Of a stretch of 64,000 nucleotides of DNA, positions 2,917 to 23,755 are shown piece by piece (position 1 is the stretch's first letter; each line of letters starts with the position of its first letter). The translations under genes and the position numbers were made by a program. The notes beneath the pieces were generated by a model, which saw only the letters and a program-made list of their open reading frames with translations, was not told the origin of the DNA and searched no databases. Source of the stretch: Nannocystales bacterium (lineage in GTDB: Bacteria; Myxococcota_A; Polyangia; Nannocystales; Nannocystaceae); the NCBI GenBank assembly GCA_050633305.1, contig JBOEGF010000010.1, forward strand, positions 128,001-192,000, written 5' to 3'.

Positions 2917-3516
2917 TTACTCGAAGCGTACCTGGAGGTGCGTGCGCTCGGGCTCAAACGCGATGGGCTTGCAGTAGACGTTCTCGTAGCCCTTGACCTC
3001 GAGCGCAGCCCGCATGGCTGTGGCGTAGCAGCGACCAAGAATCGGAGGCACCAAGTGTGGCGGGTGGACGATATAGACCTCCCAGTGGTCGTCCCCGCCG
3101 ACGACGATCAGTTCCGTACCTCGGTGCAGCTGCGAATAGGTGACCGACGCCCCTTTGACAGCTCGGCTCTTGGACAACAGACCCAGGAGGATGCGGTACA
3201 TCGGCTTGTTCACCAGGGTGCGGTTGCGTTCCAATGCGTCCGCGACAAAGGCATCGTCGCTCTCGAAGAACCGCTCTCGGAGCCCGAGGTACACCATCGT
3301 CGCGTGAACCTCTGGGACCCACCGCGTGACGGGAAACTCTCGTTGAAGGAGGGGGTGGACGGCGTCGGGAAGGCTGCTGACCAGGGCCGTTGCGTCGTGG
3401 CCCTCCAGCCACGTCGCGACCACGGAGTATTTGACCTCCGCCTCGGGAAACGCGTCGATTCCACCGGGAAGTTGGTCCAGGTAGGCCGCAACGCGTGGCA
3501 GGACGGAGGCAGCCAC
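2917..3516 (-). CDS. Conserved myxobacterial hypothetical protein (TIGR02265/DUF2378-like)
   Basis: Good coding ORF (YLDQLPGG...RWVPEVH...YSQLHRGT). GTG 3516 has TATCTT 7 nt upstream. The family assignment is from memory. Confidence 0.5.
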   Translation of the reverse strand: MAASVLPRVAAYLDQLPGGIDAFPEAEVKYSVVATWLEGHDATALVSSLPDAVHPLLQREFPVTRWVPEVHATMVYLGLRERFFESDDAFVADALERNRTLVNKPMYRILLGLLSKSRAVKGASVTYSQLHRGTELIVVGGDDHWEVYIVHPPHLVPPILGRCYATAMRAALEVKGYENVYCKPIAFEPERTHLQVRFE

Positions 3517-3636
3517 CAACGACAAGATAGCGGAACTCGAGCGAACACGGACCCTCAAGTTTGGAGGCGCGGTGCGTCCACGTCGCGACAGTCGAAATCT
3601 CCTTCGCGATCGGCCGCGCTAGGGTTCACCGGGGGC

Positions 3637-3645
3637 TGCTAGGCT
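3637..3645 (+). promoter_or_regulatory. Extended -10 box TGCTAGGCT, probable leaderless promoter
   Basis: TAGGCT ends 5 nt before ATG 3651; no SD; the same 15-mer recurs at 11150-11164. Confidence 0.55.
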
Positions 3646-3650
3646 GCGGC

Positions 3651-4637
3651 ATGACTCGGGGCTCGGTAGGCGCTCAGGCGTTTTGGGTTGTGCAGCCAGG
3701 TGTAGGCGAGCTGCGCTCGCTGGATGTTCCCGCGCCCGAGCGTGACCAGGTCCGGATTCGGACCCTGTTCTCTGGCGTCAGTCGTGGCACCGAGTCCCTC
3801 GTCTTTCACGGGCGGGTCCCCCGAGCCGAGCACGAACGGATGCGTGGTCCGCATCAGGAAGGCTCGCTGGCACTGCCGGTCAAGTACGGCTACTGCCTCA
3901 TTGGGGAAGTCACCGAAGGGGAAGGCGCAGGTCGTCGGGTGTTCTGCCTTCACCCACACCAAAGCTGGGCCTGCGTCGAATCGAGCATGGTGACCGAGCT
4001 ACCCGGCACGCTTCCGCCCGGACGCGCGGTCCTCACCGCAAACATGGAGACCGCACTCAACGCGACGTGGGACGGCGGCGTCTCTCCCGGCGACCGCGTT
4101 GTGGTGGTTGGCGGAGGGGTGGTCGGATGTTTGGTCGCCTACCTGTGTGGCCGCATCCCCGGCACGAACGTTCAACTCGTCGATGTCGACGAGCGGAGGG
4201 AAGCCGTCGCGTCCGCGCTGGGCGTCGACTTCGCGGTCCCGCCGGGGACGTGGTCCGAAGCCGACGTTGTGTTTCACGCGAGCGCCACTTCTGCTGGCCT
4301 GCAGACCGCAGTCGATGCCTCTGGTCTCGAGGCACGGATCGTCGAGGTGAGCTGGTACGGCGACAAGCCCGTCTCGCTCGAGCTCGGGGCTCAGTTCCAC
4401 CCCGGTCGCCTTCAGATCGTCTCCTCCCAAGTCGGCCGTATTCCAGCCTCACGGGCTGCTCGCTGGAGCTACGGACGTCGGCTCCGTGTGGCCCTCGAGT
4501 TGCTCTGCGACGACGTGCTCGACGTGCTGATCTCCGGAGAGTCTCCGTTCGAGACCATGCCCGCCGTGATGTCTCGCATTTTGGCGCCCGCATCGGAGCG
4601 ATCCGAGCCGGTGTTGTGCCACCGGATCTGCTACTGA
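3651..4637 (+). CDS. MDR-superfamily (Zn-type alcohol/threonine dehydrogenase-like) oxidoreductase
   Basis: GroES-like N-terminus (SGVSRGTE, PVKYGY), Rossmann motif VVGGGVVG, VEVSWYG. Confidence 0.85.
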   Translation: MTRGSVGAQAFWVVQPGVGELRSLDVPAPERDQVRIRTLFSGVSRGTESLVFHGRVPRAEHERMRGPHQEGSLALPVKYGYCLIGEVTEGEGAGRRVFCLHPHQSWACVESSMVTELPGTLPPGRAVLTANMETALNATWDGGVSPGDRVVVVGGGVVGCLVAYLCGRIPGTNVQLVDVDERREAVASALGVDFAVPPGTWSEADVVFHASATSAGLQTAVDASGLEARIVEVSWYGDKPVSLELGAQFHPGRLQIVSSQVGRIPASRAARWSYGRRLRVALELLCDDVLDVLISGESPFETMPAVMSRILAPASERSEPVLCHRICY

Positions 4638-5042
4638 GTGGCCATGTTTACCGTCTGCGTCCGCGACCACGTCATGATCGCCCACAGTTTTCGCGGTGAG
4701 GTCTTCGGACCCGCCCAGCGCCTTCACGGTGCCACCTATGTGGTCGACGTCGAGTTCCGCCGCGCCGAGCTCGACGTCAACGGTCTCGTCGTCGACATCG
4801 GCCGAGCCTCCGACGCGCTCAAGGCCATCGTCGGAGACTACGCCTACCGGAACCTCGACGAGATGCCCGAGTTCGAGGGCAAGAACACCACGACCGAGGC
4901 CTTGGCCAAAGTGATCTTCGACAAGATGAAAGCCAAGATCGACTCCGGCGTGGTTGGACCTGGCTCGGATGGGCTCGCGTCGATGAAGGTGTCGCTGCAC
5001 GAGTCGCACGTGGCTTGGGCTGCGTACGACGCTGCGTTGTGA
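4638..5042 (+). CDS. 6-pyruvoyl-tetrahydropterin synthase/QueD-fold (COG0720) protein, non-canonical subtype
   Basis: [21 protein letters not shown] and NTTTE and ES motifs of the T-fold. Abuts the stop codon of the upstream gene; the start may instead be ATG 4644. Confidence 0.85.
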
Positions 5043-5152
5043 CCGGAGCTTGTCGCTCACCGGTTGCTGGCCTGCGCGAGCTGGGCCAACGCCGCTTCCC
5101 GTGTTGTCCTGCTTCGATTGCGAGGCACGACCGGGGCTGATAACCCGGCAGG

Positions 5153-6190
5153 GTGCTGTTGGCTTCGCTTGCCGTACTGGTGCTGGCTCCGGAAGCGGAC
5201 GCGACCGAACAGCGCTGGCCCGCCGCCTACGAATTGACGTGGGAGGCACCTCCGTCGTGTCCAGAAGCGGAGGAGCTGAGGGAGCGCATCGCCGCACTCG
5301 CCCCCAACGCTGCCGGGGGCGACGGATTGATGCACGTGGCGGCGACCGTCGTGCAGTTGTCAGACCGGTTTTCTGTTCGTATCGCCACGGACTTCGCAGG
5401 TCGGCATGATGAGCGTTCCGCCGAGTCCGAGACCTGCGGGGACTTGGTCGACGCGACCGCGCTGGTCGTGGCAGTTGCACTCGAGCCCGGGGCCGAGGCG
5501 CCGCGAGTCTCGAAGTCTCCGACGCCAATCATTCCGCGACCACGTATCCCCGAGCCCGAACCGCCGAACTCCTCGGACCAGCTTGAGGTCACTGGTGCGC
5601 GAACATCGAAGGTTGTGGAGCCGGACCGCGGTGCATCGGATTCGCCGAGTGTGACACCTCAGCCGTTTCGCTTGTCTCCGCCGGACGCGATTCTCGTTCG
5701 AATCGCTCCGCTGGTCGAGTTCGGGAGCTTGCCGTCTGTCGATGCGGGCACGGCCCTGACCGCCGGTGTTCGGTGGGCTCATTGGCGTGCGGAGGTGTTC
5801 GGGCTGTATCTGTTTCCTCAGCGGCAGACCTTCGACCGGACCCGAAGCGTGCTGCAACTCGGAGCGGCCGGGGCACGCGTGTGTCACCGACTTCTCTCCG
5901 GCCGGGTGGAGTTTCCGACCTGTCTGGGGCTCGAGGCTGGAGCCTTGCGGGCGCAGACCCAGGGGCAGCGGCCGCGAACCACCCTCAGCCTGCCTTGGCT
6001 GGCGCCATCCGTCCGCGGGGGGGTGGCGGTGGGTGGAGAGCACGTTGGCTTCTTTGCGGCAGGGGAAGTTGCTGTTTCGGTGCTGGTCCCTCGGATCTTG
6101 GTGGGTGACGAAAGTGCATTCCGCACCCGGGCGGTGTCTCTGCGGGCGTTGGCGGGGGTTGAGTTCTTTCTTCCAATAGATCGACGTTGA
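5153..6190 (+). CDS. Secreted/outer-membrane protein (Cys-pair N-domain, Pro-rich linker, beta-strand-rich C-domain)
   Basis: Signal peptide, WEAPPSCP...TCGDLVDATALVVAVAL, Pro-rich linker, amphipathic beta strands ending GVEFFL. Confidence 0.65.
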   Translation: MLLASLAVLVLAPEADATEQRWPAAYELTWEAPPSCPEAEELRERIAALAPNAAGGDGLMHVAATVVQLSDRFSVRIATDFAGRHDERSAESETCGDLVDATALVVAVALEPGAEAPRVSKSPTPIIPRPRIPEPEPPNSSDQLEVTGARTSKVVEPDRGASDSPSVTPQPFRLSPPDAILVRIAPLVEFGSLPSVDAGTALTAGVRWAHWRAEVFGLYLFPQRQTFDRTRSVLQLGAAGARVCHRLLSGRVEFPTCLGLEAGALRAQTQGQRPRTTLSLPWLAPSVRGGVAVGGEHVGFFAAGEVAVSVLVPRILVGDESAFRTRAVSLRALAGVEFFLPIDRR

Positions 6191-7401
6191 TGTGGACACT
6201 GGGGAGGCAAGTGGCCGAAGCCAGCCAACCGATCAGCCCGGACTGCGACTTTCGCGCCGTCTACGACGGCTACCACGGCTTCGTTTGGTACACGCTGCAC
6301 CGTCTCGGCATCGCCCCGGAGGCGGTTGAGGACGCGGTTCAGGATGTCTTCGTGGTCGCGTTTCGGCGACGGTCCACGTTCGAGGGTCCCTCTGCCAAGG
6401 CGTGGCTCTACGGCATCGCTCGACGGGTCGCGAGCAACTACCGCCGTTCGCGTCGGCGTCGTCGGGAACGCATCCGGGCGCTGGGGACCGCATCGCCTCG
6501 CACGGCGACCGCGGATGCACGCGAGGCGATCGAGACGCTCAATCGCTACCTTGCGGGACTCAGTGTCACCGATCGAGAGATCTTCGTTCTCGCTGAGGTC
6601 GAGGGAATGACGGGTCCTGAGATCTCAGCGGCGTTCGGTCGTAATCTGCAGACGACCTACACCCGTATGCGCAAGCTTCGGTTGGGGTTCCGGGCAGCGC
6701 TGGCGGATCCAGCGGCCGTTAAACGAGACCACCCGCGCGCGAGCGCGGGCTCTTGGGCGGCCCTTGCTTCCGTGCTGAGCGAGTCACCGCTGGTGGCGAC
6801 CGGATGGACGGCTTCTCTGAGCTCGGCATGGATTGCCATCGGACTGGGCGCGACTGTGGCAGTGGCCGGGCTCGTCGTCGTCGATCGCGTCTTGCCCGAT
6901 ACGGCCCACATTCGACGCGCTGGCGTTGTGTCCAAGCCGGACCCTCGACCGCGGCCTGCCGATGCGGGGGAGGACTCCCAGCTGGCTGCCCCCGCGCCCC
7001 AACAACTCTCGCCCACGAAACCGGGATTGGCAGCTGAAGAGGACTCTGAGTCCGCGGCCGAGGCGATGGTTCGAGCTCCGAGTCACATCGTCGTCTCTCC
7101 CACCCCAACGCGGGAACGGCCGGGGCCCCGTGCCCTTGCGCCGGAGAACGCGCTGCTCCGAGATGCCGCGTCTGCGCTGGGACGTGGTGAATTCCAGGAG
7201 GCGCTGGAGTTCACCGACCGACACGCGGAGCAGTTCTCTCGCAGCGCGTTCACGGACCTGCGATCGGCGATTCGGATTCAGGCCCTGTGTGGACTAGGGA
7301 AGGTCGTGCAGGCCCGTGGCGAAGCTGCGTTGTTCCTTCGTCACTACCCCGAGTCAGCGGCCGCCGTCCGGGTTGAAAAGAGTTGTGCAGGCCCGTCATA
7401 G
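6190..7401 (+). CDS. ECF sigma factor fused to a TM helix and extracytoplasmic TPR-like domain
   Basis: Sigma2 EDAVQDVF and WLYGIARR; sigma4 REIFVLAEVEGMTGPEIS; TM AWIAIGLGATVAVAGLVVV; C-terminal helical ENALLRDA...IQALCGLG. TGATG overlap with the upstream gene. Confidence 0.8.
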   Translation: MWTLGRQVAEASQPISPDCDFRAVYDGYHGFVWYTLHRLGIAPEAVEDAVQDVFVVAFRRRSTFEGPSAKAWLYGIARRVASNYRRSRRRRRERIRALGTASPRTATADAREAIETLNRYLAGLSVTDREIFVLAEVEGMTGPEISAAFGRNLQTTYTRMRKLRLGFRAALADPAAVKRDHPRASAGSWAALASVLSESPLVATGWTASLSSAWIAIGLGATVAVAGLVVVDRVLPDTAHIRRAGVVSKPDPRPRPADAGEDSQLAAPAPQQLSPTKPGLAAEEDSESAAEAMVRAPSHIVVSPTPTRERPGPRALAPENALLRDAASALGRGEFQEALEFTDRHAEQFSRSAFTDLRSAIRIQALCGLGKVVQARGEAALFLRHYPESAAAVRVEKSCAGPS

Positions 7402-7430
7402 ATGCGGGCGCAGCCGGACAAGTCAGGAAC

Positions 7431-8309
7431 ATGAACACGCGTTTGCTCCGAACTTCGGTCCTCATTGTTTCGTTTCCCTTCGCGGGATGTGTGCAGTCCG
7501 GAGTGTTGGACGAAACAGGGACCGAGAACACGACAGACCCCTCGGGGAGCGAAACCCAGGGGGCGTCTTCAGAGGACTCGGGGCCTGGAACAATGCCCTC
7601 TGGGGATAGCGATGAGACGCTCGAGTCCGGAAGCAGCGGGGACGGGGGCGGGTTTTCCTGCGTCGACTACAGCCCTCCCGCGTTGGACTGTGGGACGAAC
7701 GCCGGGGCGACGGCCTCGGTTGGGTACTCCGTAGATACGCTCGGCCCTCTCCGAGATACCGAGTGCACGGTCGTCCGCATCCAGGATGCGAACGAGGGCA
7801 GCGTCGAACTGGAGTTCGCTTGCCCCACGGGCATCGCGAGCCTCTTCGTCTCGACACATCTTGCGGAGCTCCCTGTACCGTTCTCGGAGGGAGACTCGGT
7901 ACTGCTTACCGTTCAATCGCAGGGCTCCTCGTCCGTTGTTCGTTCGCTCAGTGGCCGACTCCTACTCGGCTACGTGGCCGTCGAAGGCTTCGAAGCGGAC
8001 GTCGATCTTGGGGCAATCGAGATCGTACACGGACTCAGCGGGTGCCCCGCCGAAGCGGAGTCCTCGGCGTCTTGCACCGAGGACGGATCGGTCTCCACCG
8101 CTCGCACCGCGCTCAAAGTGGCATCGGGCGGCCCGACGGGAGCGACCGTGTTCGAAGGACAGTCCGAGATCATCGAGCAGGGGGGGCGTTCGTTCCTCTT
8201 CGTCGTCGACGTCGCCCGGGAGCTGGTCTGCTGGGACGAGGACTGCACCACCGACGCGCCGTGGCTAGAGGACGGGGGGGCGATGGCCTTCCTACTCGTT
8301 GCTCAGTGA
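7431..8309 (+). CDS. Cys-rich hypothetical lipoprotein
   Basis: AGGA SD before ATG 7431; lipobox FAGC; Ser/Thr/Gly tether. Confidence 0.7.
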   Translation: MNTRLLRTSVLIVSFPFAGCVQSGVLDETGTENTTDPSGSETQGASSEDSGPGTMPSGDSDETLESGSSGDGGGFSCVDYSPPALDCGTNAGATASVGYSVDTLGPLRDTECTVVRIQDANEGSVELEFACPTGIASLFVSTHLAELPVPFSEGDSVLLTVQSQGSSSVVRSLSGRLLLGYVAVEGFEADVDLGAIEIVHGLSGCPAEAESSASCTEDGSVSTARTALKVASGGPTGATVFEGQSEIIEQGGRSFLFVVDVARELVCWDEDCTTDAPWLEDGGAMAFLLVAQ

Positions 8310-8396
8310 GGAAGCTGAGGGAGTCGAGGGGCTTGTGGGAGGCGACGACGGAAGCTTCGCTTCGCTGGCGAAAGCTGCGTATCCTACCCGCCCGCA

Positions 8397-9077
8397 ATGT
8401 CCGACCCTCTCGATCCCCGCCGCACCTTCGACCACGCGCTTGCGTTGGGCCTGGGCTTCGCCTGGGCTGGCTTCTCGGGGCAGACCCGTCCGTTGGTGAT
8501 CGCGGCGGTGTGGATGTTTGGGACGTGGCTGTGGAGTGCACGAGGCCGCTGGACGCCCAGTGGTCGGTTCGGGGCGGCCAACGTTGTCACGCTCATCCGA
8601 CTCGTCCTGGCGTTTTCGATGTTGGCGTTGCCGCTGCATCTGCGGCGACCCGGGGCGGGTCTGTTGCTGATGGCCTTCTTCGCGCTCGACGGCCTCGACG
8701 GAAAGCTCGCCCGACGATCGGGCCAGAGCTCGAAGTTCGGTGCGGCGTTCGACATGGAGACCGACGCCTTCATGACCGGGCTGGCATCGATCGTCGCAGT
8801 TGACCTGGGCTGCATGGGCCTGTGGATGCTCGGGGTTGGCGGGCTGCGCTACCTGTTCGTGCTGGTCACGTACCGCTTTCCAAGCGAGCCCGAGCCCGTA
8901 CGAACCAGCGCTCGCTGGGCGTTCTCGCTGCTGATGGTCGGGCTGACCGCGGCGCTGACCCTGGACTGGCCGCCGTTCGATTGGTTGGCGGCCGCGGGCG
9001 CCGCGGGAGTCGTCGTGTCGTTTGGGCGATCGTTCGTGTGGGTGTTCCAGCACCGTCGCGGGACGTCCGTCGTGTGA
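8397..9077 (+). CDS. CDP-alcohol phosphatidyltransferase family protein
   Basis: ANVVTLIR and the signature DGLDGKLARRSGQSSKFGAAFDMETD; multiple TM helices. Confidence 0.9.
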   Translation: MSDPLDPRRTFDHALALGLGFAWAGFSGQTRPLVIAAVWMFGTWLWSARGRWTPSGRFGAANVVTLIRLVLAFSMLALPLHLRRPGAGLLLMAFFALDGLDGKLARRSGQSSKFGAAFDMETDAFMTGLASIVAVDLGCMGLWMLGVGGLRYLFVLVTYRFPSEPEPVRTSARWAFSLLMVGLTAALTLDWPPFDWLAAAGAAGVVVSFGRSFVWVFQHRRGTSVV

Positions 9078-10021
9078 CCGTGTCTTCGACGGCGCGCCGG
9101 GTCTTGCGGGTGGTCGGTAGCGTCGGGCTGCTCGCCGCGGTCGTATGGTGGGTTGACGTCGGCGCTGTCCTCGACACGTTGTCCGAAGCACGGCTGGCTC
9201 CACTTGGGGTTGCGCTCGTGGTCTCGGTTCCCCTGGCGTTGTTGCTGGCGGCTCGGTGGTGCTTCACTGCGCGTCGGATGGGGATTGACCTCCCTCTGGG
9301 CGTCGCGGCGCGCGAGTACTACGTCTCGATGTTGATCAACCGAGTCGTTCCCGGGGGCGTTGTGGGCGATGTTGGGCGGGCGGTCCAAAGCGGTCGCCGC
9401 AATCCTGAAGCTCGAGGAGCCGCGGCTCGCAGTGTGGTGCTCGAACGGGTGTCGGGCCAGGTCTCGTTGTGGTTGGTGGTCCTGGGGGGCTTGGTCGTGT
9501 GGGGGGCGGAAACCGGGGCTCGACTCGCGCTCATCGTATTGGCGGTTCTGGCCAGCGCTGCGGTTCTCGTTGCCCTATTCGTACGAATCCCGGCGGTCGC
9601 CCGCGGTCGTATCGGGAGGTGGTGGTCGGTCGGGACCGCCGAGGCCCGGGAAGCATTCGTGCACCGCGGAGCGTGGGCCACGCAGCTGGGACTCTCTCTT
9701 CTGAGCGTGGGGGTCCTGGTTGTGATGTACGCGGGGTGTGTCGAGGCAGTCGGTGCGACGCTGGGTCTCTCTCAGTTGGTCTTCATTGCGCCGACGTTGC
9801 TCGCCCTGACGACGCTGCCGTTGTCGGTGGGAGGTTGGGGAGTACGCGAGGCTGCCTCGGCGGTCCTGTTCGAAGTCGCGGGCCTGGACCCATCGGCGGG
9901 CGTGGCCGCGTCTGCTGCCTTTGGGGCAGTCAATCTCGTGGCCGCGCTGCCCGGGGCGTGGTTCTGGGCGCGCCGGGCCGCAACGCCGGGCCTTGCCCGT
10001 GACGAGCCCGCAGAACCGTGA
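9074..10021 (+). CDS. Lysylphosphatidylglycerol synthase TM-domain (UPF0104/AglD2-like flippase) protein
   Basis: RW, NRVVPGGVVGDVGR, LER and PLSVGGWGVRE motifs; GTGA overlap with the upstream gene. Confidence 0.85.
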   Translation: MTVSSTARRVLRVVGSVGLLAAVVWWVDVGAVLDTLSEARLAPLGVALVVSVPLALLLAARWCFTARRMGIDLPLGVAAREYYVSMLINRVVPGGVVGDVGRAVQSGRRNPEARGAAARSVVLERVSGQVSLWLVVLGGLVVWGAETGARLALIVLAVLASAAVLVALFVRIPAVARGRIGRWWSVGTAEAREAFVHRGAWATQLGLSLLSVGVLVVMYAGCVEAVGATLGLSQLVFIAPTLLALTTLPLSVGGWGVREAASAVLFEVAGLDPSAGVAASAAFGAVNLVAALPGAWFWARRAATPGLARDEPAEP

Positions 10022-10024
10022 CCT

Positions 10025-10993
10025 TCAGCCCTTGGTCCCGCGTAGCGGACAGTCGAACAACACGTCCGGGCCGAGCGTGAAGTGGCGACATGAAATTCGC
10101 ATCGCTTCGTCCAACGTGGCGATCTCAGGGAGCCTGAGCGAGGGTCGACCGGAGCCCATCAGGACCGGGGCGACCGTGATGTGGAGGCGGTCGAGGACGC
10201 CAGCCTTCATGAATCCCGAGACCGTGATGCCGCCACCTTCGACGAAGACCCTGCGAAGGCCGCGCTCGGCGAGGGCTTCGAGCAGGACTGGGGCCGGAAT
10301 CCAGCCATCCTCCAACTCCAGTTCCACGACGTCGACGTGTGCAGGCGCGTCAAAGCGACCCGGCCCGCGAACGAGGACTGTGCTTGCGTCGGGCTCGGTG
10401 AAGACGTGATGGGTGTTGGGAAGGCGGCCCGTCGGATCGACGATCACGCGCGTGGGGTTGGGGCCCGGTGCCAGTCGGGTCGTCAGCCGCGGGTCGTCGT
10501 GTTCGATGGTTCGCGCCCCGACGAGGACTGCATCGAACATCGCGCGGAGCCGATGGGTGTGGGTGAGATCTTCGCGTCCGCTGATGAACTTCGAAGAGCC
10601 AGATGCGGTCGCGACACGGCCATCGAGCGACTGCGCGAGGTGGGCGACAACCAGGGACGGTGCATCTGCACCCACACACAGCGGCACGAAGAGATCGAGG
10701 AGGTCGCAGCTCGCGGGGGGTAGCTCGGGCTCAAGCGCCTCGGGGACGGACCAACCCCGGCTCTGGGCCGGATCGAGGACCACGGTCGCACGTTCGATGG
10801 GGACTTCGACGAGGTGGTCCTCTGCGTCGAGTGCGACGCCGATGGGCGTTGAGATCTCGCCCCCGGCACGCAGCCGGTCGGCGAGCTGCAGGAGCAGACA
10901 CCAGGCCCGCTTGGGCCCAAAGGACGCAAGTACCCCGGACCCCGATTGGGCAGCAGCGTCCACAGAAGAACCGTCAAGCAAAGTCGAAGTCAT
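10025..10993 (-). CDS. RibD C-terminal (pyrimidine reductase/DHFR-fold) protein with N-terminal extension
   Basis: AQSLDGRVA, RAMFDAVLVGARTIEHDDPRLT, VFVEGGG, APVLMG; no deaminase HAE/PCxxC motifs. Confidence 0.85.
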   Translation of the reverse strand: MTSTLLDGSSVDAAAQSGSGVLASFGPKRAWCLLLQLADRLRAGGEISTPIGVALDAEDHLVEVPIERATVVLDPAQSRGWSVPEALEPELPPASCDLLDLFVPLCVGADAPSLVVAHLAQSLDGRVATASGSSKFISGREDLTHTHRLRAMFDAVLVGARTIEHDDPRLTTRLAPGPNPTRVIVDPTGRLPNTHHVFTEPDASTVLVRGPGRFDAPAHVDVVELELEDGWIPAPVLLEALAERGLRRVFVEGGGITVSGFMKAGVLDRLHITVAPVLMGSGRPSLRLPEIATLDEAMRISCRHFTLGPDVLFDCPLRGTKG

Positions 10994-11152
10994 GGGGCAT
11001 GCGCTTTTCGCGACACGACGTTTGCCCAGAGTACCAGGCGCGCGGTGGGGTCCGCTGCAGGTCCCGCGACTTGGTGATCTACGAGCGTGCGCGGAGGTGC
11101 TTCCACGGGGGCCTTCCCCGCCCTCGCGGTTCTCCCTGGCTCCAGCCGTGGC

Positions 11153-11161
11153 TGCTAGGCT
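11153..11161 (+). promoter_or_regulatory. Extended -10 box TGCTAGGCT upstream of the sulfotransferase
   Basis: Identical in context to 3634-3648; 18 nt before ATG 11180. Confidence 0.45.
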
Positions 11162-11179
11162 GCGCCCTCTTCAGGGTGG

Positions 11180-12013
11180 ATGACCGGGCTCCTTCCTAGC
11201 TTCATGATCATCGGCGAGCGCAAGTGCGGGACGACCTCCCTGTACCGCTACCTCACCGAGCATCCCGCGGTCCTTCCTTGCACCGTCAAGGAGACACACT
11301 TCTTTTCCAAGTCCAGCCGTGTGGTGCGCCGGGACATCGAGCAGTACCGCTCGTTCTTCCCGTCCGCGGACGATGCGGCGGTGGAGTCGCAGATCCTCGA
11401 CCTGGACGAACGAGACCAGATCATCGAGACCAAGCTCTCGAAGCCCATCGAATCAGGTCGCACGTACATCACCGGTGAAGCGTCCGCGAACATGCTGATG
11501 ACGGTCCCGCCACGCCGCATCTTCGACGTGCTGCCGAAGGTCAAGCTCATCGTCGTCGCCCGCGATCCCGTCGCCCGGGCTTTCTCGCATCACGCGATGC
11601 ACGTCCGCTTCAAGCAAGAGGGGCGATGGCAGTTCCGATTCGTGTCCGACTACCGGCGCGACTTCGAACGCGAGCGCTGGGCGTCGCGCTTGGGGATCCG
11701 CGGCCCCTACCTCGCGCCTGGCCGGTACGAGGAGAGCCTGCGTCGCTGGCTGGGCGTCTTCCCTCGCGAACAGGTCTCCGTGGTTCGGACGGAAGACCTC
11801 GCAGAGCCCCACGCCCAGGCCCGAGTCCTCGAGAACCTGTGCGACTTCCTCGACCTCGACCGCTTCAACTTCTCCGGGGTCGGAGGCGCCAAGTTGAACG
11901 TGGCATCGAGCGTCGCCCGTGATGAGCAGACGGCGGCACGGCTTCGAGCGTACTTCGCCCCCTCGACGGAGCGTCTGGAGCGCCTGCTGGGCCGCTCCAT
12001 GGCCTGGGACTGA
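11180..12013 (+). CDS. PAPS-dependent sulfotransferase
   Basis: 5'-[25 protein letters not shown], 3'-[11 protein letters not shown]. Confidence 0.9.
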
Positions 12014-12077
12014 CTTCAGCGGACACGATGGATCTGACTATCGAAGCGGGACGGGGTGATCTACGGTCCTGCTCCGC

Positions 12078-13850
12078 GTGCTGGAGCAGATCAGACGACA
12101 CCCTGCGGTCCGAGTGGCCGGCCCTTGGCTCGCTCTCTTCGCGCTGAACGTCCTGTTCATCGCGCCGGGGGTCGGGCTCGAGGTTCCGGACCGGACATCC
12201 GTTCTGCTGGCCCCCAGCGGTGACCTGCTGTTGCTGGTCGGCATCGTCGTGGTGTCGGTCCGCTGGCGCCACGGTGTGTGGCTCAAACGCTCCGCCATCG
12301 TTGCTGGCGTTGTGCTGTGGATCTACCTCTGGGACGAGCTGATCGCCCGTTCGATCATCTACCAGAGCCCGCCGCTGTACGACCAAGCCTTCTTGCTGCG
12401 GCACTTTGCCGTGCTGATCCTCGACCTTTGGAGTTGGAAAGTCGGGCTCGGTCTATTGGGCATCGTCCTTGCGACGGCGCTCGTGGTTTGGCTGGCTCGG
12501 GTGTTGCTGCGCGTCACGGTGACGGGGATTCGTGCGCAGTCGGTGCGGTCTCAGCTGATAGGGGCGGGTCTACTCGCCGCACTCATCGGCCTTGGCACCG
12601 TCGTCGACAACAGCCAGAAGACACCTCGGCGAGAACGCTTGGTGCATTGGACGACTCCCGCGCTCAGCACCAACGCGGCAGCTTCACTGCGGATGTACCA
12701 AGCCCTGCAGCGCGGGATCTCCGACTCGCCCTACGCCGCCTACCCGCAACAGGTCCCGCTGGCTCGTAAGCCCGACATCCATCTGCTGTTGGTCGAGAGC
12801 TACGGTCGCCTTCTCATCACGGATGCAGAGGCTGGTCCCGCCTGGCGAGAGCAAGTCACGGGTCTGGAGAGCCGGCTTCGGGACAAGGGGTGGGACATGG
12901 TCAGCGCGTTCTCCCGCGCTCCCATCTCCGGCGGCCGCTCCTGGCTGGCTGAAGGCACGCTGCTCACGGGGATCTACGTTCGCTTCGAGGCGGTGTTTCA
13001 GCACCTCGTCGCCGATATCTCGCAGACGCCGAACCTCGTCGCGTACCTCGACACCCAAGGATACGAGACAGTGTTGCTGGCCCCCAAGGCGAAACCTCGT
13101 CCCGGGGTCGAGGCGGTCAATCGTTACAACTACGACCAGCAGGTGGAGGCTCTGGATCTCGAGTACACGGGGCCTCGCTTCGGTTGGGGCATCATCCCCG
13201 ATCAGTACAGCCTGGGCTTCACCCAAGAGCATGTCCTGTCGAAGATCGAAGGACCGGCGTTCTTCAACTTCCACATGGTCAGTTCTCACGCGCCGTGGCA
13301 GATCATCCCCGAGTTCCAGGACGACTGGCGCAGCCTCAACGACGCCGAGGCATCGCCGGACGCAGCGAACCAGGATCCTATCGCGACACCGGGACAGGAG
13401 TTCATGGCTCGCATGCGTCGGTATCAACGCCGCAAGCCCAAGTACATGTGGATGGGCGACGCCGACGCGCTGAAGATCGATGCCTACGCCGCCTCGATCC
13501 GCTACGACCTCGAGCTCCTGACCCGCTACGTCGAAGACCTCGACCGGGACGCCATCGTCATCATCATGGGCGATCATCAGCCGCCTCTGCTCTCACGCGA
13601 GGACGAGACGTTCGACGTTCCGATCCACATCCTGGCTCGCGACCCTGCGCTCCTCGAGGAGTTCCGAGAGCAGGGGTTCGTGGACGGTTTGGGGATCAAC
13701 TCCGGGCGTGACGCGGCCTTGGCCCACGAAGGGGTGTTCTCGATGATGGTGCGGGCTTTGGCCCGTTGTTGCGCCGAGCCGGGCTCTTCGATGGTGCCGT
13801 ACCTGCCCGAAGGGGCGCCAGGAATCGACGATCGTGGCCGTCGCAAGTAG
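12078..13850 (+). CDS. Membrane-anchored alkaline-phosphatase-superfamily enzyme (sulfatase/LtaS-like)
   Basis: About five N-terminal TM helices, then LLLVESYG, GGRSWLA, MVSSHAPW, MGDHQPP and VPIHI. Confidence 0.8.
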   Translation: MLEQIRRHPAVRVAGPWLALFALNVLFIAPGVGLEVPDRTSVLLAPSGDLLLLVGIVVVSVRWRHGVWLKRSAIVAGVVLWIYLWDELIARSIIYQSPPLYDQAFLLRHFAVLILDLWSWKVGLGLLGIVLATALVVWLARVLLRVTVTGIRAQSVRSQLIGAGLLAALIGLGTVVDNSQKTPRRERLVHWTTPALSTNAAASLRMYQALQRGISDSPYAAYPQQVPLARKPDIHLLLVESYGRLLITDAEAGPAWREQVTGLESRLRDKGWDMVSAFSRAPISGGRSWLAEGTLLTGIYVRFEAVFQHLVADISQTPNLVAYLDTQGYETVLLAPKAKPRPGVEAVNRYNYDQQVEALDLEYTGPRFGWGIIPDQYSLGFTQEHVLSKIEGPAFFNFHMVSSHAPWQIIPEFQDDWRSLNDAEASPDAANQDPIATPGQEFMARMRRYQRRKPKYMWMGDADALKIDAYAASIRYDLELLTRYVEDLDRDAIVIIMGDHQPPLLSREDETFDVPIHILARDPALLEEFREQGFVDGLGINSGRDAALAHEGVFSMMVRALARCCAEPGSSMVPYLPEGAPGIDDRGRRK

Positions 13851-14784
13851 CTCGCTTCACCACCGGTTGGTGGCCCCCCCGTTGGAGGGGCCCATCACCG
13901 GTGGGACCCTCTACAACCGGTTCCTGTGTGAAGCGCTCACCCGATGTGGCGATCGGGTTGAGGTCGTCGCGGCCGCCGCCGACTGCGAGGGGTTTGCGTG
14001 GGTGGATTCGCTCTTCCTGCCCCACGTTGCCGAACTGTGGAGCCGTCGCCCCATGGGGTTGCTCGCACACTACTTGCCATCGGTGTTCGAAGGACGCACC
14101 GAGCTCGAGTCGTTTGAAAGGCTGGCCCTACGGCACGCCGCGCTCGTGGTGTGTACGGGAGCCTGGATGCTCGATACGGTTGCCGAGCTTGGTGTCCCGA
14201 TGCAACGTCTTGCGCTCGTCGAGCCTGGAGTGAGCGCTGCTGCCAGCGTCGCGGATCCCGTCGATGGGGTGATGACCGCACTCCTCGTCGGCACCGTTAC
14301 CCAGCGCAAGGGCGTGCTCGAGCTCATCGAGGAAGTCCGTCGTTCGCCTCCCACGGAGCCGTGGCGGCTGGAGGTCCTCGGTGATCAGGCCGCGGAACCC
14401 GAGTATGCCCAAGCGTGCAAAGACGCTGCGGTTGGCCTCCCTGTCGCGTTTCTTGGCGCCCGCCCGCCCGAAGAAGCCCTCGATGTGATCGGGCGCGCGG
14501 ATGTGTTGGTGTCCGCGGCGACGGTCGAGTCCTACGGCATGGCGATCGCCGAAGCCCAGGCATGCGGAGTGCCCGTCTTGGCGCGTCGCGGCGGCCACGT
14601 TGCGCAGCTCGTGTCGCGGGTGCCCTCGGGCGTCGTGGTCGACGGCGTCCCTGCGCTTGTCACCGAGCTCCGTCGGCATGCCCAAGCTCCCGCCTACCTC
14701 GCGGACCTTCGAGAAATCAGCCGAGCGCATCGCCCCAAGAGAACCTGGGACGACGCAGCCAGCGAGTTTCGCACCCTGCGATAA
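13834..14784 (+). CDS. Glycosyltransferase family 4 (GT-B)
   Basis: TGGTLYN, RKG and ESYGMAIAEAQACGVPV (E-x7-E motif). Confidence 0.9.
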   Translation: MAVASSSLHHRLVAPPLEGPITGGTLYNRFLCEALTRCGDRVEVVAAAADCEGFAWVDSLFLPHVAELWSRRPMGLLAHYLPSVFEGRTELESFERLALRHAALVVCTGAWMLDTVAELGVPMQRLALVEPGVSAAASVADPVDGVMTALLVGTVTQRKGVLELIEEVRRSPPTEPWRLEVLGDQAAEPEYAQACKDAAVGLPVAFLGARPPEEALDVIGRADVLVSAATVESYGMAIAEAQACGVPVLARRGGHVAQLVSRVPSGVVVDGVPALVTELRRHAQAPAYLADLREISRAHRPKRTWDDAASEFRTLR

Positions 14785-20464: not shown

Positions 20465-20618
20465 CGCCGAGTGACACTGACATGGCCGGCCGTGTCTTGT
20501 CGAACACCCGTCCTGGTCGCAGGAGATAACCAGTTTTGTTTCATGGGTTTACGGGCGCCTCCGAAAAAAGATGGGCTCGGTCGCGGACAGTTTTGGCACT
20601 CGGGTTACCTGGGGGACG

Positions 20619-22301
20619 ATGACGGACGGGAAGATGTGGGCGCCGCTGGCCGGACTTGCTCTGGTGGCTGGCTGCTACTCCGGTGTTGAAGTCGGGGTGA
20701 CCGCGGGCGCGGATTCCGAGTCGGCTGGACCTTCGGCGTCCGGCAACGCAGATGACTCGGACGGGTCCGGTGAATCTGGTGGGGACGCAGAGGTCCCCGA
20801 GCTTCCTCAGCTGGTCGCCCACTCGGGCATGCGCCGGCTGACACGGGTGGAGTACGTCGAGACGGTCCAAGACCTGACCGGGGTGGCGTTGGCGAGCGGA
20901 GCCTCTTCGCTTCCCTCCGACGACCTGGTGCCCTTCGACAACGACTACACAACCCAGGCCGAGTCTGCATCGCTCATTGTGGCCGCTGAGTCGTTGGCCG
21001 GTGAGGCGGCCCAAGGCCTTCTCGACGATCCTCAGCTTTGGGGTGCTGTGGTGCCGTGTGAGGCGTCGGCCGTGGACGCTGATTGCTTCGACACCTTTGT
21101 CCGATCGTTTGGCCGTCGGGCGCTTCGACGGCCGGTGACGGACGAAGAGGTGACGCGCTGGGGCACCTGGATGATGGACGAGGCCGAGGTTGCAGGGGAC
21201 TCCAGCATGGCCATCGCCATCGCGGTCAGAATGTTCCTGCAGCACCCCGAGTTCCTCTATCGCATCGACGCGGGGGAGCCCACGGAGGACCCCGACGTGG
21301 TCCGGCTCGACGATTGGGCGGTGGCCTCGCGGTTGTCGTTCCTGTTGTGGGGGGTCGGTCCTGACGATGCCCTGCTCGATGCGGCTGCGGCGGGTCGGCT
21401 CGGCACGCCCAGCGACATCGAGACCGAAGCGATCCGGATGCTCGCAGACGAGCGCGCAAAACAGCGTGTCCAGCGTTTTCACGCGATGTGGATGGGCTAC
21501 GAGGTCATGGCGATCGGCGGCGACCTCGGTGACTCCATGCGTGCGGAGACGGCGGCGCTGATCAACCGCGTCGTCTTCGACGAAGAGGTGGTCTGGCAGG
21601 ACCTCTTCCGCAGCGAAGAGACGTTTGTGGATGATGCCCTTGCTCAGCACTACGGGATCGAAGCTCCGGCGAACACCGCGGGAGACTGGGTGAACTACGG
21701 CGAGAGCGGACGGACCGGGATTCTCTCCCACGGCACCTTCCTCTCCAACGGGTTCAAGGATGGCGACACAAGCCCGATCGTTCGCGGCCATGTCGTCAGC
21801 TCCATGCTTCTGTGCTTGGAGGTCCCCGAGCCTCCCGCCGATGTGCCACCGCCCCCCGAACCGGTTGAGGGCGCCTGCAAGATCGACGAAGCGGCGGCTC
21901 ACCTGACCCAAGCCAGCTGTGCCGGCTGCCACGCGATGCTCGACACGCTCGGCTTCGGTCTCGAGAACTACGACGAGTTTGGGCAATGGCGTCCAACGGA
22001 CCCGGGCAAACCCGAGTGCGAGATCGAGGGCGATGGGGAGGTGCCTGGACTTGGGAAGTTCAACGGGCCTGGAGAGCTTGGGATCTTGCTCTCAGACAGC
22101 AAGTTGCTCAACCAATGCCTCGCAGAGCAGGCCTATCGCTTTGCCGTCGGTCGTACCGAACTCGACGCCGTCGACAACGGAATTATCGAGCGCACCATGG
22201 AGGAACTCGGGGAAGGTGACTTCGAGTTCAAGGAACTCCTCCTTCAGCATGTCACCGACCCCTCTTTCGGATTTGCTCGCCAGCACACGGAGAACGACTG
22301 A
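20619..22301 (+). CDS. DUF1587/1595/1592/1588/1585 lipoprotein with a CxxCH motif
   Basis: VAGC lipobox; MRRLTRVEY, FGRRALRRP, ASRLSFLLW, TSPIVRG, CAGCH, GFGLENYD. Confidence 0.85.
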   Translation: MTDGKMWAPLAGLALVAGCYSGVEVGVTAGADSESAGPSASGNADDSDGSGESGGDAEVPELPQLVAHSGMRRLTRVEYVETVQDLTGVALASGASSLPSDDLVPFDNDYTTQAESASLIVAAESLAGEAAQGLLDDPQLWGAVVPCEASAVDADCFDTFVRSFGRRALRRPVTDEEVTRWGTWMMDEAEVAGDSSMAIAIAVRMFLQHPEFLYRIDAGEPTEDPDVVRLDDWAVASRLSFLLWGVGPDDALLDAAAAGRLGTPSDIETEAIRMLADERAKQRVQRFHAMWMGYEVMAIGGDLGDSMRAETAALINRVVFDEEVVWQDLFRSEETFVDDALAQHYGIEAPANTAGDWVNYGESGRTGILSHGTFLSNGFKDGDTSPIVRGHVVSSMLLCLEVPEPPADVPPPPEPVEGACKIDEAAAHLTQASCAGCHAMLDTLGFGLENYDEFGQWRPTDPGKPECEIEGDGEVPGLGKFNGPGELGILLSDSKLLNQCLAEQAYRFAVGRTELDAVDNGIIERTMEELGEGDFEFKELLLQHVTDPSFGFARQHTEND

Positions 22302-23755
22302 TGTCCCGACGCCTCTCTCGACGAAGTTTTCTGGCCGGTACCGGCGGCGCTGCGCTCTGCCTCCCGGTGCTCGAATCGATGTTGCCGCGCTCCGCTGTTG
22401 CGGGTGGGGGGGGCACCCCAACGCGCTATGTCTTCTGCTACGCAGGAACTTCGAGCGGTCGATACAACACCCCGAACGAGGGCGAGATCCTCGTTCCCAG
22501 CTCGCACGGCGACCTCGAAACGGTGGGTGCGTCGATGCACTCCCTACAGCCGCTGTTCAACGAAGGCGTTGGACAGGACGTCTCGTTGGTGTCGAACCTC
22601 ATGATCCCGTGGGGCAGCGGAACCCTGGCACCTGGCGGACGGCTCACCGAGCTCGACTTCCACTTCGGCCCGACGGTGACGCCTCAGCTCTCCGGCATGA
22701 AGGCGATCGTCAAGGCGAGGATGGACGGGGCCAGCTCCGACCAGCTGATGGTGCAGTCGATGGCACCCGATACCGTCGTGCCCTCGCTCAGCCAGCGGGT
22801 CCAGCCGATCGACTACATGGGAGGAAACGGCGGCTCCGCCGGCCGGATCTCGTTCCGCGACGACGGTGGCTCGATCACGCCGATCGACCCGTTTGTATCC
22901 CCGCGCGAGACCTTCAACTACCTCAACTCGGTCTTCTTGCCGCCGGACGCATCACCCGAGATGCTGGCCGCGATCGAACGGCGCGCGAGCGTACTCGATG
23001 AGGTCGGTGGAGCCGCGCAGGCGCTGATGGCACGACTCGGAAGCTCCGACCGAGAGCGGTTGCAGCGTCACCTTCACGAGGTCGAACTCCTCGAGAGTCA
23101 GCTTCGCAGTGGCGCGGGGGATATCTCCGGCGCCTGCCTGGGCCCGATGGATCCTGGTGAGGATCCTGCCCTCGGCGGTCAGGTCGCTGGCGTCGACCAG
23201 ATCGACGGAAGCCTCGGGTGGAGCGACGAAGACACTCGCGCGATGCGGCAGATGGAGTTGATCCGGATGGCGTTTAGCTGCGACGTCACGCGTTTTGCCT
23301 CCCTACAGATGACAAACTGGAAGTCGTGGATGGGCGCGTCCAACATCGGCGCGGGTTGGGACATCGACATCCACGAGATCGGACACACCGGTGCGATGCC
23401 GAAAGAGGCGATGGGGGACGTTGTCGGCTGGCACGTCGGTCAGTTTGCGAAGTTGGTCCGCATGCTCAAGGAAACGCCGGAGTGGGACGGGAGCTCGCTG
23501 CTCGACAACACTGCGCTCGTGCTGTGCTTTGAGGGCGGACACGGAGAAGACCCGATCGATGGTGGGTACAGCACGCACTCTACCCAGAACATGTCGGTGC
23601 TCGTTGCCGGAAACGTGGGTGGCCTCGTCGCGGGACAACACATCGATGGCCAAGGCAGCCACCCCGCGGAGGTGACACTCACGGCGATGCGAGCTGCAGG
23701 GTACGGCGGAGACTTCGGAGACTTCTCGTCCGAACTCGCCGGCCTGCGCGGCTGA
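22301..23755 (+). CDS. DUF1552 family protein with Tat signal
   Basis: LSRRSFLAG, LPVLESM, SVLD, DRERLQRHL, SLLDNT; TGATG overlap with the upstream gene. Confidence 0.85.
   Translation: MSRRLSRRSFLAGTGGAALCLPVLESMLPRSAVAGGGGTPTRYVFCYAGTSSGRYNTPNEGEILVPSSHGDLETVGASMHSLQPLFNEGVGQDVSLVSNLMIPWGSGTLAPGGRLTELDFHFGPTVTPQLSGMKAIVKARMDGASSDQLMVQSMAPDTVVPSLSQRVQPIDYMGGNGGSAGRISFRDDGGSITPIDPFVSPRETFNYLNSVFLPPDASPEMLAAIERRASVLDEVGGAAQALMARLGSSDRERLQRHLHEVELLESQLRSGAGDISGACLGPMDPGEDPALGGQVAGVDQIDGSLGWSDEDTRAMRQMELIRMAFSCDVTRFASLQMTNWKSWMGASNIGAGWDIDIHEIGHTGAMPKEAMGDVVGWHVGQFAKLVRMLKETPEWDGSSLLDNTALVLCFEGGHGEDPIDGGYSTHSTQNMSVLVAGNVGGLVAGQHIDGQGSHPAEVTLTAMRAAGYGGDFGDFSSELAGLRG

Follow-up and report, generated by a model that had tools for sequence, protein, structure and literature searches.

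A sulfotransferase-bearing copy of the orphan PTPS-IV gene set in a Nannocystales bacterium and its two likely exits to the cell envelope

A cluster of eight genes lies at positions 3651–14784 of the window analysed here, a stretch of 64,000 nucleotides (C10:128001–192000) from the 11.0 Mb genome, 92% complete, of a Nannocystales bacterium. With a PTPS-fold protein that is an orthologue of Streptomyces SCO6650 and belongs to PTPS-IV, it represents a known orphan neighbourhood, the PTPS-IV (SCO6650-type) gene set, which is spread across phyla and is here intact. The gene set itself is not new, and the present copy is a variant that carries a sulfotransferase. The new element of this analysis is the presence, beside a common core, of two mutually exclusive exits: a lipid module with a CDP-alcohol phosphotransferase and an LtaS-like membrane enzyme (module A), and a dedicated paralogue of MdoH. 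The two exits are likely to be interchangeable, a lipid head group being one form of the product. A search of the main texts of openly available papers found neither this split nor the minimal soluble core described below, and no paper naming the product of the gene set; the original prediction, made from the sequence of the window, had known of none either. Although its neighbourhood is conserved and a structure has been solved, the COG0720 subfamily PTPS-IV has no established function, and it is wrongly labelled QueD in databases.

Of 40 relatives, the 10 that carry PTPS-IV are also the 10 with the LtaS-like gene, and among 251 genomes of the phylum the two genes likewise coincide, in 5. The core is also present in one Nisaea and four Thiocapsa genomes, which lack the LtaS-like gene and show no strong match to the cluster-type CDP-alcohol transferase. 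For the class to which Nisaea belongs, the alphaproteobacteria, 321 genomes were scanned, the centre genome having been picked as a positive. PTPS-IV is present in 34 of them and the CDP-alcohol transferase subfamily in 16, every one PTPS-IV positive; the LtaS-like gene is found in these 16 and in one further genome (G344). A profile built from eight cluster-linked MdoH proteins matched 51 of the 321 genomes, with scores of at least 756 bits in 16 and at most 556 bits in the rest, a split read off the scores afterwards. All 16 high-scoring genomes, nine of which lie outside the profile, carry PTPS-IV and lack the CDP-alcohol transferase. The 34 PTPS-IV genomes therefore comprise 16 with the CDP-alcohol transferase and the LtaS-like gene, 16 with the dedicated MdoH paralogue and two with neither, although these counts include kin and are not independent. 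Exit and core genes are often unlinked on the chromosome in this class. Among 40 full-length loci from our wider collection (see below), MdoH-like (7) and LtaS-like (21) genes never occur in the same locus. The cluster-linked paralogue passes two NCBIfam cut-offs for MdoH, the OpgH/MdoH protein of osmoregulated periplasmic glucans, but differs from ordinary OpgH/MdoH in forming a separate group by score, confined to PTPS-IV genomes. No MdoH match was found in the 92% complete Nannocystales genome. On a quick tree of the MDR proteins, of low support, the MdoH label required seven changes, two of them forced by strong branches; the labels were clustered, and Thiocapsa was nested among the module A rows. 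In one genome (G321:C1:2536991–2539652) an mdoH that scores in the ordinary range is followed immediately downstream by a cluster-type CDP-alcohol transferase gene, a second hint at a link with periplasmic glucans.

The two genomes without an exit are AT-rich and measure 1.6 and 1.4 Mb. Their loci, L118 (G467:C3, 8136–14068) and L119 (G578:C2, 5837–11771), hold a soluble core of seven genes, encoding creatininase, MDR, PTPS-IV, GT4, methyltransferase, RibD-C and RibA. PTPS-IV is thus common (34 of 321 alphaproteobacteria) and retained even in genomes of 1.4–1.6 Mb. Because both lipid genes are missing from 18 of the 34 PTPS-IV genomes, 16 of these 18 having the MdoH paralogue in their place, a lipid head group is not the defining product. 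The nested gene profile implies that the CDP-alcohol and LtaS-like enzymes depend on the core and not the core on them; since the core occurs without these genes, its product is likely to be soluble, with a hydroxyl usable by either exit. The pathway for a lipid head group that had originally been proposed is therefore supported as to the co-occurrence of the genes, the GTP-derived start and the module that would load, flip and transfer, and falls for the lipid as defining product. The clean split separates a small soluble core (at most seven enzymes) from the membrane steps, so that the product is directly testable in vitro and the fraction to be searched is known for each organism.

A neighbourhood analysis seeded with the protein encoded from position 4638 retrieved 274 loci with PTPS relatives, of which the best 80 were kept, 40 shortened by contig ends and 40 full length. 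By tblastn, these 80 contain genes for MDR (77), GT4 (69), RibD-C (66), the CDP-alcohol transferase (61), the LtaS-like protein (41), UPF0104 (15) and the sulfotransferase (3); profiles detected the core methyltransferase in 57, RibA in 30, FkbM in 21, creatininase in 14, MdoH-like proteins in 8 and a second methyltransferase in 7. By the tblastn counts, the clustering is not due to chance. The genes do co-occur in other genomes and phyla; the original prediction mentions similar neighbourhoods in other phyla, often with a RibA paralogue and a methyltransferase. Annotated plasmid copies with the same core are found in Streptomyces, Peteryoungia, Methylosinus and Palleronia. The Streptomyces SCO6650 neighbourhood has the orthologous T-fold protein with FGPAQ, and a plasmid of S. 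fungicidicus shows the same MDR, GT4, methyltransferase, RibD-C and CDP-alcohol transferase neighbours. In contrast to Streptomyces, the Nannocystales cluster has no linked RibA or creatininase, has its methyltransferases on another contig and adds UPF0104, the LtaS-like enzyme and the sulfotransferase. The FkbM and second methyltransferases are never found together in the 40 full-length loci and may fill the same role. On the Palleronia plasmid (L117, 4113–11887) the core is accompanied by an inositol monophosphatase and a PfkB kinase, with no exit gene in the stretch shown.

All eight open reading frames are intact, and their positions, domains and junctions agree with the original description of an eight-enzyme cluster: the MDR and PTPS genes abut (gap 0), the CDP-alcohol transferase and UPF0104 genes overlap by 4 nucleotides (GTGA), and the LtaS-like and GT4 genes by 17. 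The PTPS-IV protein (4638–5042, + strand; PF01242) matches the SCO6650 structure (PDB 3D7J) with an E-value of 1.3e-50 and has FGPAQ at residues 23–27 and HGA at residues 30–32; the motifs CxxxHGH (that of QueD, PTPS-I), CxxxxxHGH and ExxHGH described in PMC5445326 and PMC5041015 are all absent from its sequence. In an alignment of 81 rows H11, H16, H30, E87, E122 and H124 are invariant and no Cys is conserved. We take E87 to be the T-fold residue that holds a guanine-like ring. Against the QueD model TIGR03367 the protein scored 46.1 bits (cut-off 89.25), and the RefSeq tag for the PTPS-IV proteins of the plasmid copies is 6-carboxytetrahydropterin synthase. PMC5445326 gives FGPAQ as the PTPS-IV signature and RibD_C and PF00925 as neighbours; it names PF00925 FolE2, whereas in Pfam it is GTP cyclohydrolase II. 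RibD_C is adjacent in the present cluster; PF00925 is unlinked here but present in 30 of the 80 related loci. PMC5041015 states, as unpublished work, that PTPS-IV takes part in F420 synthesis.

In the MDR-family dehydrogenase (3651–4637, + strand) the catalytic Cys site, at which solved MDRs have a Zn-binding Cys, holds Ser44, and 75 of 77 rows share this Ser; the GHE string is absent from the sequence, and GxGxxG and Asp178 are conserved. Its Pfam match is weak, and the best NCBIfam match is BchC (E = 1e-9, below the cut-off), a Zn-free secondary-alcohol dehydrogenase. From these residues the enzyme is likely to be Zn-free and NAD-dependent.

The RibD-type reductase (RibD-C; 10025–10993, − strand) consists of PF01872 only (residues 115–298), with neither the deaminase domain nor the Lys151/152 of bifunctional bacterial RibD. 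Its best PDB matches are 6P8C and 2AZN, archaeal reductases of 2,5-diamino-6-ribosylamino-4(3H)-pyrimidinone 5'-phosphate (DARP). His118 aligns with Lys151 of RibG; 66 of 67 rows have either His or Gln at this position, and none has Lys; S134, R150, R173 and E252 are kept, the site of Asp167 is Asn in 21 of 67 relatives, and the TIGR01508 match is below the cut-off. PMC3631187 shows that an enzyme with Lys at the RibD specificity site prefers the deaminated substrate, and one with Thr, or with Asn as in archaea, the 2-amino form. With no Lys at this site, and with the catalytic Asp/Glu and phosphate-binding Arg kept, RibD-C has the predicted features of a DARP reductase of the Rib7/ArfC type. 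It shares with this archaeal and fungal riboflavin route the reductase-only build, the lack of the bacterial Lys and the best PDB matches, but has His/Gln rather than Asn/Thr and is extended at its N terminus by a domain of ∼110 residues. The genome also encodes a full bifunctional RibD elsewhere.

The genome contains a single full RibA gene, on C10 ∼0.68 Mb from the cluster, with Tyr at the GTP cyclohydrolase (GCH) II site, where the cluster RibA of Streptomyces has Met. Further searching for ribA and folE paralogues, a check proposed with the original prediction, revealed a degenerate RibA domain in a ribD-ribE-ribB operon and two FolE; FolB is also present, and a true QueD is encoded on C12 (93.4 bits, cut-off 89.25). 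Folate, riboflavin and queuosine synthesis are thus served by genes outside the cluster. CofE and CofC gave no matches in the 92% complete genome, with positive controls; cofG/cofH and cofD were not searched. We also considered whether a long RibA with creatininase marks a GCH-III type enzyme; this failed for the 30 RibA proteins of the loci, all of which have Tyr; in the survey of the site only the Streptomyces copy had Met, and one sequence was unmatched by the pattern.

Module A comprises the CDP-alcohol phosphotransferase (8397–9077, + strand; PF01066), of a cluster-specific subfamily, and the LtaS-like protein (12078–13850, + strand; Sulfatase clan). The former keeps the catalytic residues D98, D101, D119 and D123 in 61–62 of 62 rows, and CdsA is present in the genome. 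In one locus (L041) the CDP-alcohol transferase and LtaS-like domains form a single open reading frame of 826 residues, and a similar actinobacterial fusion cluster is listed in the Atlas. The UPF0104/MprF-type flippase-like protein (9074–10021, + strand; PF03706, TIGR00374 above cut-off), with at least six hydrophobic segments, appears accessory to the module. The LtaS-like protein has five predicted transmembrane segments, and across its family (37 rows) E240, S288, H404, D499 and H500 are invariant, residues among which metal-ligand roles are assigned from LtaS motifs; the C/S-x-P-x-R formylglycine motif of sulfatases is absent from its sequence. At the sequence level the family profile matched only LtaS, with an E-value of 0.39. 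A model built on the 37-row alignment (predicted local distance difference test score 74.9; a single-sequence model scoring 37.6 was discarded) has as its best folds LtaP (Z 21.5), LtaS, MCR/EptA and GacH (Z 19–21.5), with whole-length matches to EptA and MCR-1. The modelled protein fits the LtaS/EptA/OpgB design of a membrane domain followed by an alkaline phosphatase-fold domain with metal ligands and a Ser nucleophile. In common with LtaS/LtaP, OpgB, GacH and EptA/MCR it has N-terminal membrane helices and an alkaline phosphatase fold with Glu, a hydroxyl nucleophile, His and Asp-His; it differs in its low identity to them (9–16%), the Ser nucleophile and the accompaniment by its own CDP-alcohol transferase. 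In two loci that also hold the MdoH paralogue (L037, 6805–8199; L044, 6795–8201) the CDP-alcohol transferase is fused to a YceI domain, and stand-alone YceI-like genes lie near 6 of 20 alphaproteobacterial cores.

Decoration of the core product would fall to the GT4 glycosyltransferase, two methyltransferases and the sulfotransferase. The profile of the GT4 family (13834–14784, + strand; PF00534) is nearest to Tll1590 (6KIH) and MshA-type D-inositol-3-phosphate glycosyltransferases (E-values of 1e-46 to 1e-34, best 7e-46). The original prediction noted no GTP cyclohydrolase or methyltransferase in the window, and neither GTP cyclohydrolase II nor a cluster-type methyltransferase was found in it. 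A cluster-type methyltransferase gene is situated on another contig (C18:571309–572301), tail to tail with a second methyltransferase gene. In sister genera both genes belong to the cluster: they lie within a complete cluster in G020, where the first overlaps the LtaS-like gene, and beside the cluster in G016; in G006 the second abuts GT4. Both are restricted to PTPS-IV genomes: the first has a match in 8 relatives out of 40, the second in 8 out of 30, while the PTPS-IV genomes G006 and G014 gave no match to the first, nor G014 to the second. Against the PDB the core methyltransferase profile matched EgtD best (E = 2e-4), with no telling relative; the second is nearest to D-glucose O-methyltransferase (E = 9e-21), a lead only, since other types follow closely. 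Besides the displaced pair, which stands at its end, locus L093 (G000:C18, 10223–20000) encodes a GT2 and several GT-C-like membrane proteins (PMT, weak PF10131); its gene order is repeated in G002 (L109) and differs in G004 (L110). This locus may be either a chance landing place or the holder of an acceptor pathway. The sulfotransferase (11180–12013, + strand; PF13469, PF00685), predicted to depend on 3'-phosphoadenosine 5'-phosphosulfate, has 3RNL as its best PDB match, followed by heparan sulfate 3-O-sulfotransferases, and no hydrophobic or transmembrane segment was predicted in it. All 7 genomes examined from the genus encode it, with at least 71% identity, and it adjoins the LtaS-like gene in the five where contigs allow; the 33 other genomes yielded one weak match and no strong one. 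The sulfotransferase is an addition confined to this genus.

Taken together, the gene content, residues, fold and co-occurrence observed lead us to infer, with middling confidence and for every reaction from sequence, a scheme in which the core turns the first intermediate of riboflavin synthesis into a sugar-bearing pterin-like compound that is joined to a phospholipid and passed to an envelope acceptor. The sole full RibA, present as a gene, would make DARP from GTP and be borrowed for the pathway. The deaminase-less RibD-C would, judging from its residues, reduce DARP with retention of the 2-amino group to a 2-amino ribitylaminopyrimidine phosphate. The Zn-free MDR would then oxidise a ribityl hydroxyl; at C2' this would yield an Amadori ketone, and closure onto the 5-amino group would produce dihydroneopterin phosphate with no need of FolE. 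Together, the reduction of DARP and the C2' oxidation equal a net Amadori rearrangement, and the dihydroneopterin phosphate so formed would supply a pterin to the T-fold enzyme. This oxidation is the least certain step and one that we put forward as tentative and rather doubtful; PMC4161248 describes conversion of DARP to dihydroneopterin phosphate via an Amadori step by RibA and TrpF of Chlamydia. PTPS-IV may bind the 2-amino-4-oxo ring and rework the side chain, whereupon GT4, the two C18 methyltransferases and the sulfotransferase would decorate the compound in the cytoplasm. The CDP-alcohol enzyme would join a free hydroxyl to CDP-diacylglycerol, UPF0104 would flip the lipid, and the LtaS-fold enzyme, acting through Ser288, would hand the phospho-head group over to a glycan or lipid of the envelope. 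Where other lineages have the dedicated MdoH paralogue, it would take the place of these last three steps, an indication that both exits end in a tagged glycan of the periplasm or cell surface.

The pteridine glycosides are among the known systems to which such a product would be close. To our knowledge, no lipid step occurs in their synthesis. Tetrahydrobiopterin (BH4) glucoside, GlcNAc-biopterin of Chlorobium and cyanopterin likewise combine a GTP-derived pterin with a GT-B type glycosyltransferase, according to PMC5683033, but their routes begin at FolE, and the cluster GT4 is not close to solved BH4 glucosyltransferases. A more far-reaching proposal, unlikely in our estimation, is that a tenth of the alphaproteobacteria and members of at least four other phyla make a new pterin-like glycoside by a reduction and oxidation independent of FolE and display it in the envelope through either of two unrelated machineries, as a phosphatidyl-pterin lipid with an LtaS-fold transferase or as a pterin-primed glucan of the dedicated MdoH, the form of the present genus being sulfated and doubly methylated. 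If true, the product would be the first phospholipid or envelope glycan known to bear a pterin; the lipid, if it exists, would represent a new class of head group.

Several observations weigh against the pterin scheme with its exits. The RibA gene is unlinked to the cluster, and with two FolE encoded, the existence of a further route to neopterin calls for an explanation. The GT4 side gives no support for a pterin acceptor, since BH4 glucosyltransferases rank ∼20th for the GT4 profile (E = 2.5e-17), far below Tll1590 and MshA. G344 carries the LtaS-like gene without PTPS-IV, while L037 and L044 hold both the MdoH paralogue and the (YceI-fused) CDP-alcohol transferase. UPF0104 is encoded in only 15 of the 80 loci. 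True sulfatases score Z 18–19.3 against the LtaS-like model, 1–3 units below LtaS, so that the fold fails to part transferase from hydrolase cleanly. The best solved relatives of the CDP-alcohol transferase profile, CEPT1/CHPT1 (E-values of 4e-9 to 8e-8), use a CDP-head group and not CDP-diacylglycerol.

The alternative that survives best, albeit one we consider unlikely, keeps the same entry and exits and ends in a non-pterin product: an open 2,5-diamino-pyrimidinone, a ring of the lumazine or deazaflavin type or, once the ring has been cut off, an amino-pentitol head group resembling that of aminopentanetetrol lipids. PTPS-IV without the Cys/Glu motifs of pterin-processing subfamilies and a GT4 nearest to polyol-phosphate glycosyltransferases would suit such a product; however, the invariance of E87, given the role of this residue in T-folds, suggests that PTPS-IV still binds a guanine-like ring. 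PTPS-IV is known from haloarchaea, which fits poorly with the distribution of the aminopentanetetrol lipids. The unpublished link to F420 mentioned in PMC5041015 also speaks for a non-pterin product, and PMC6423904 reports that methylated aminopentanetetrol lipids exist, but lists as strains with them one of the Methanomicrobiales only and nine Halobacteria as negative; the aminopentanetetrol idea is weak. It is quite unlikely that the product is a soluble pterin-type glycoside, serving as light screen, signal or osmolyte, with the membrane modules and sulfotransferase optional for its retention or display or acting on something else. The two small genomes (1.4 and 1.6 Mb) that keep no more than the seven soluble genes, the restriction of the sulfotransferase to one genus and the tie of cyanobacterial pterin glycosides to light protection (PMC13259868) would all agree with this, but 32 of the 34 PTPS-IV alphaproteobacteria keep exactly one exit module, even unlinked, an indication that most of them need export. 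Slightly less likely still, in our view, is a core that makes an activated donor and not an acceptor: diacylglycerol would receive phospho-X from it through the CDP-alcohol enzyme, in the manner of CEPT1/CHPT1, and the MdoH paralogue would use the compound like a nucleotide sugar. Both exit enzymes do belong to families using nucleotide-diphosphate donors, and CEPT1/CHPT1 are the best solved relatives noted above; yet those matches span the shared motif only, and no recurring nucleotidyltransferase was found in the best 80 of 274 loci or in 20 alphaproteobacterial loci. To the remaining notion, that the genes back up folate, riboflavin, queuosine or F420 synthesis and ordinary phospholipid synthesis without a product of their own, we give a very small chance: the RefSeq tag and the unpublished F420 work cited in PMC5041015 speak for it, but it is already weakened by the canonical genes elsewhere in the genome, the sub-threshold QueD score of the PTPS protein and the failure to find CofE and CofC in this 92% complete genome.

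The PTPS and CDP-alcohol transferase genes are 3.3 kb apart in the window, a point not mentioned in the original prediction, with three genes between them (5153–8309, + strand) that encode a hypothetical protein, an extracytoplasmic function (ECF) sigma factor and a lipoprotein-like protein. In L010, which aligns to window positions 2921–5042 and resumes from 8397, the two genes are 13 bases apart; the three genes, absent there, are therefore regarded as an insert unrelated to the pathway. The first has at least six paralogues elsewhere in the genome, and the ECF sigma factor has a long C-terminal extension. A scan for promoters and terminators gave no signal exceeding that of shuffled sequences. 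The same spot in L012 and L013 is occupied by different inserts. The cluster is flanked by a DUF1552 gene (95–1690) and a DUF1592-DUF1552 gene (20571–23755), a common myxobacterial pair with no link to the cluster outside the genus.

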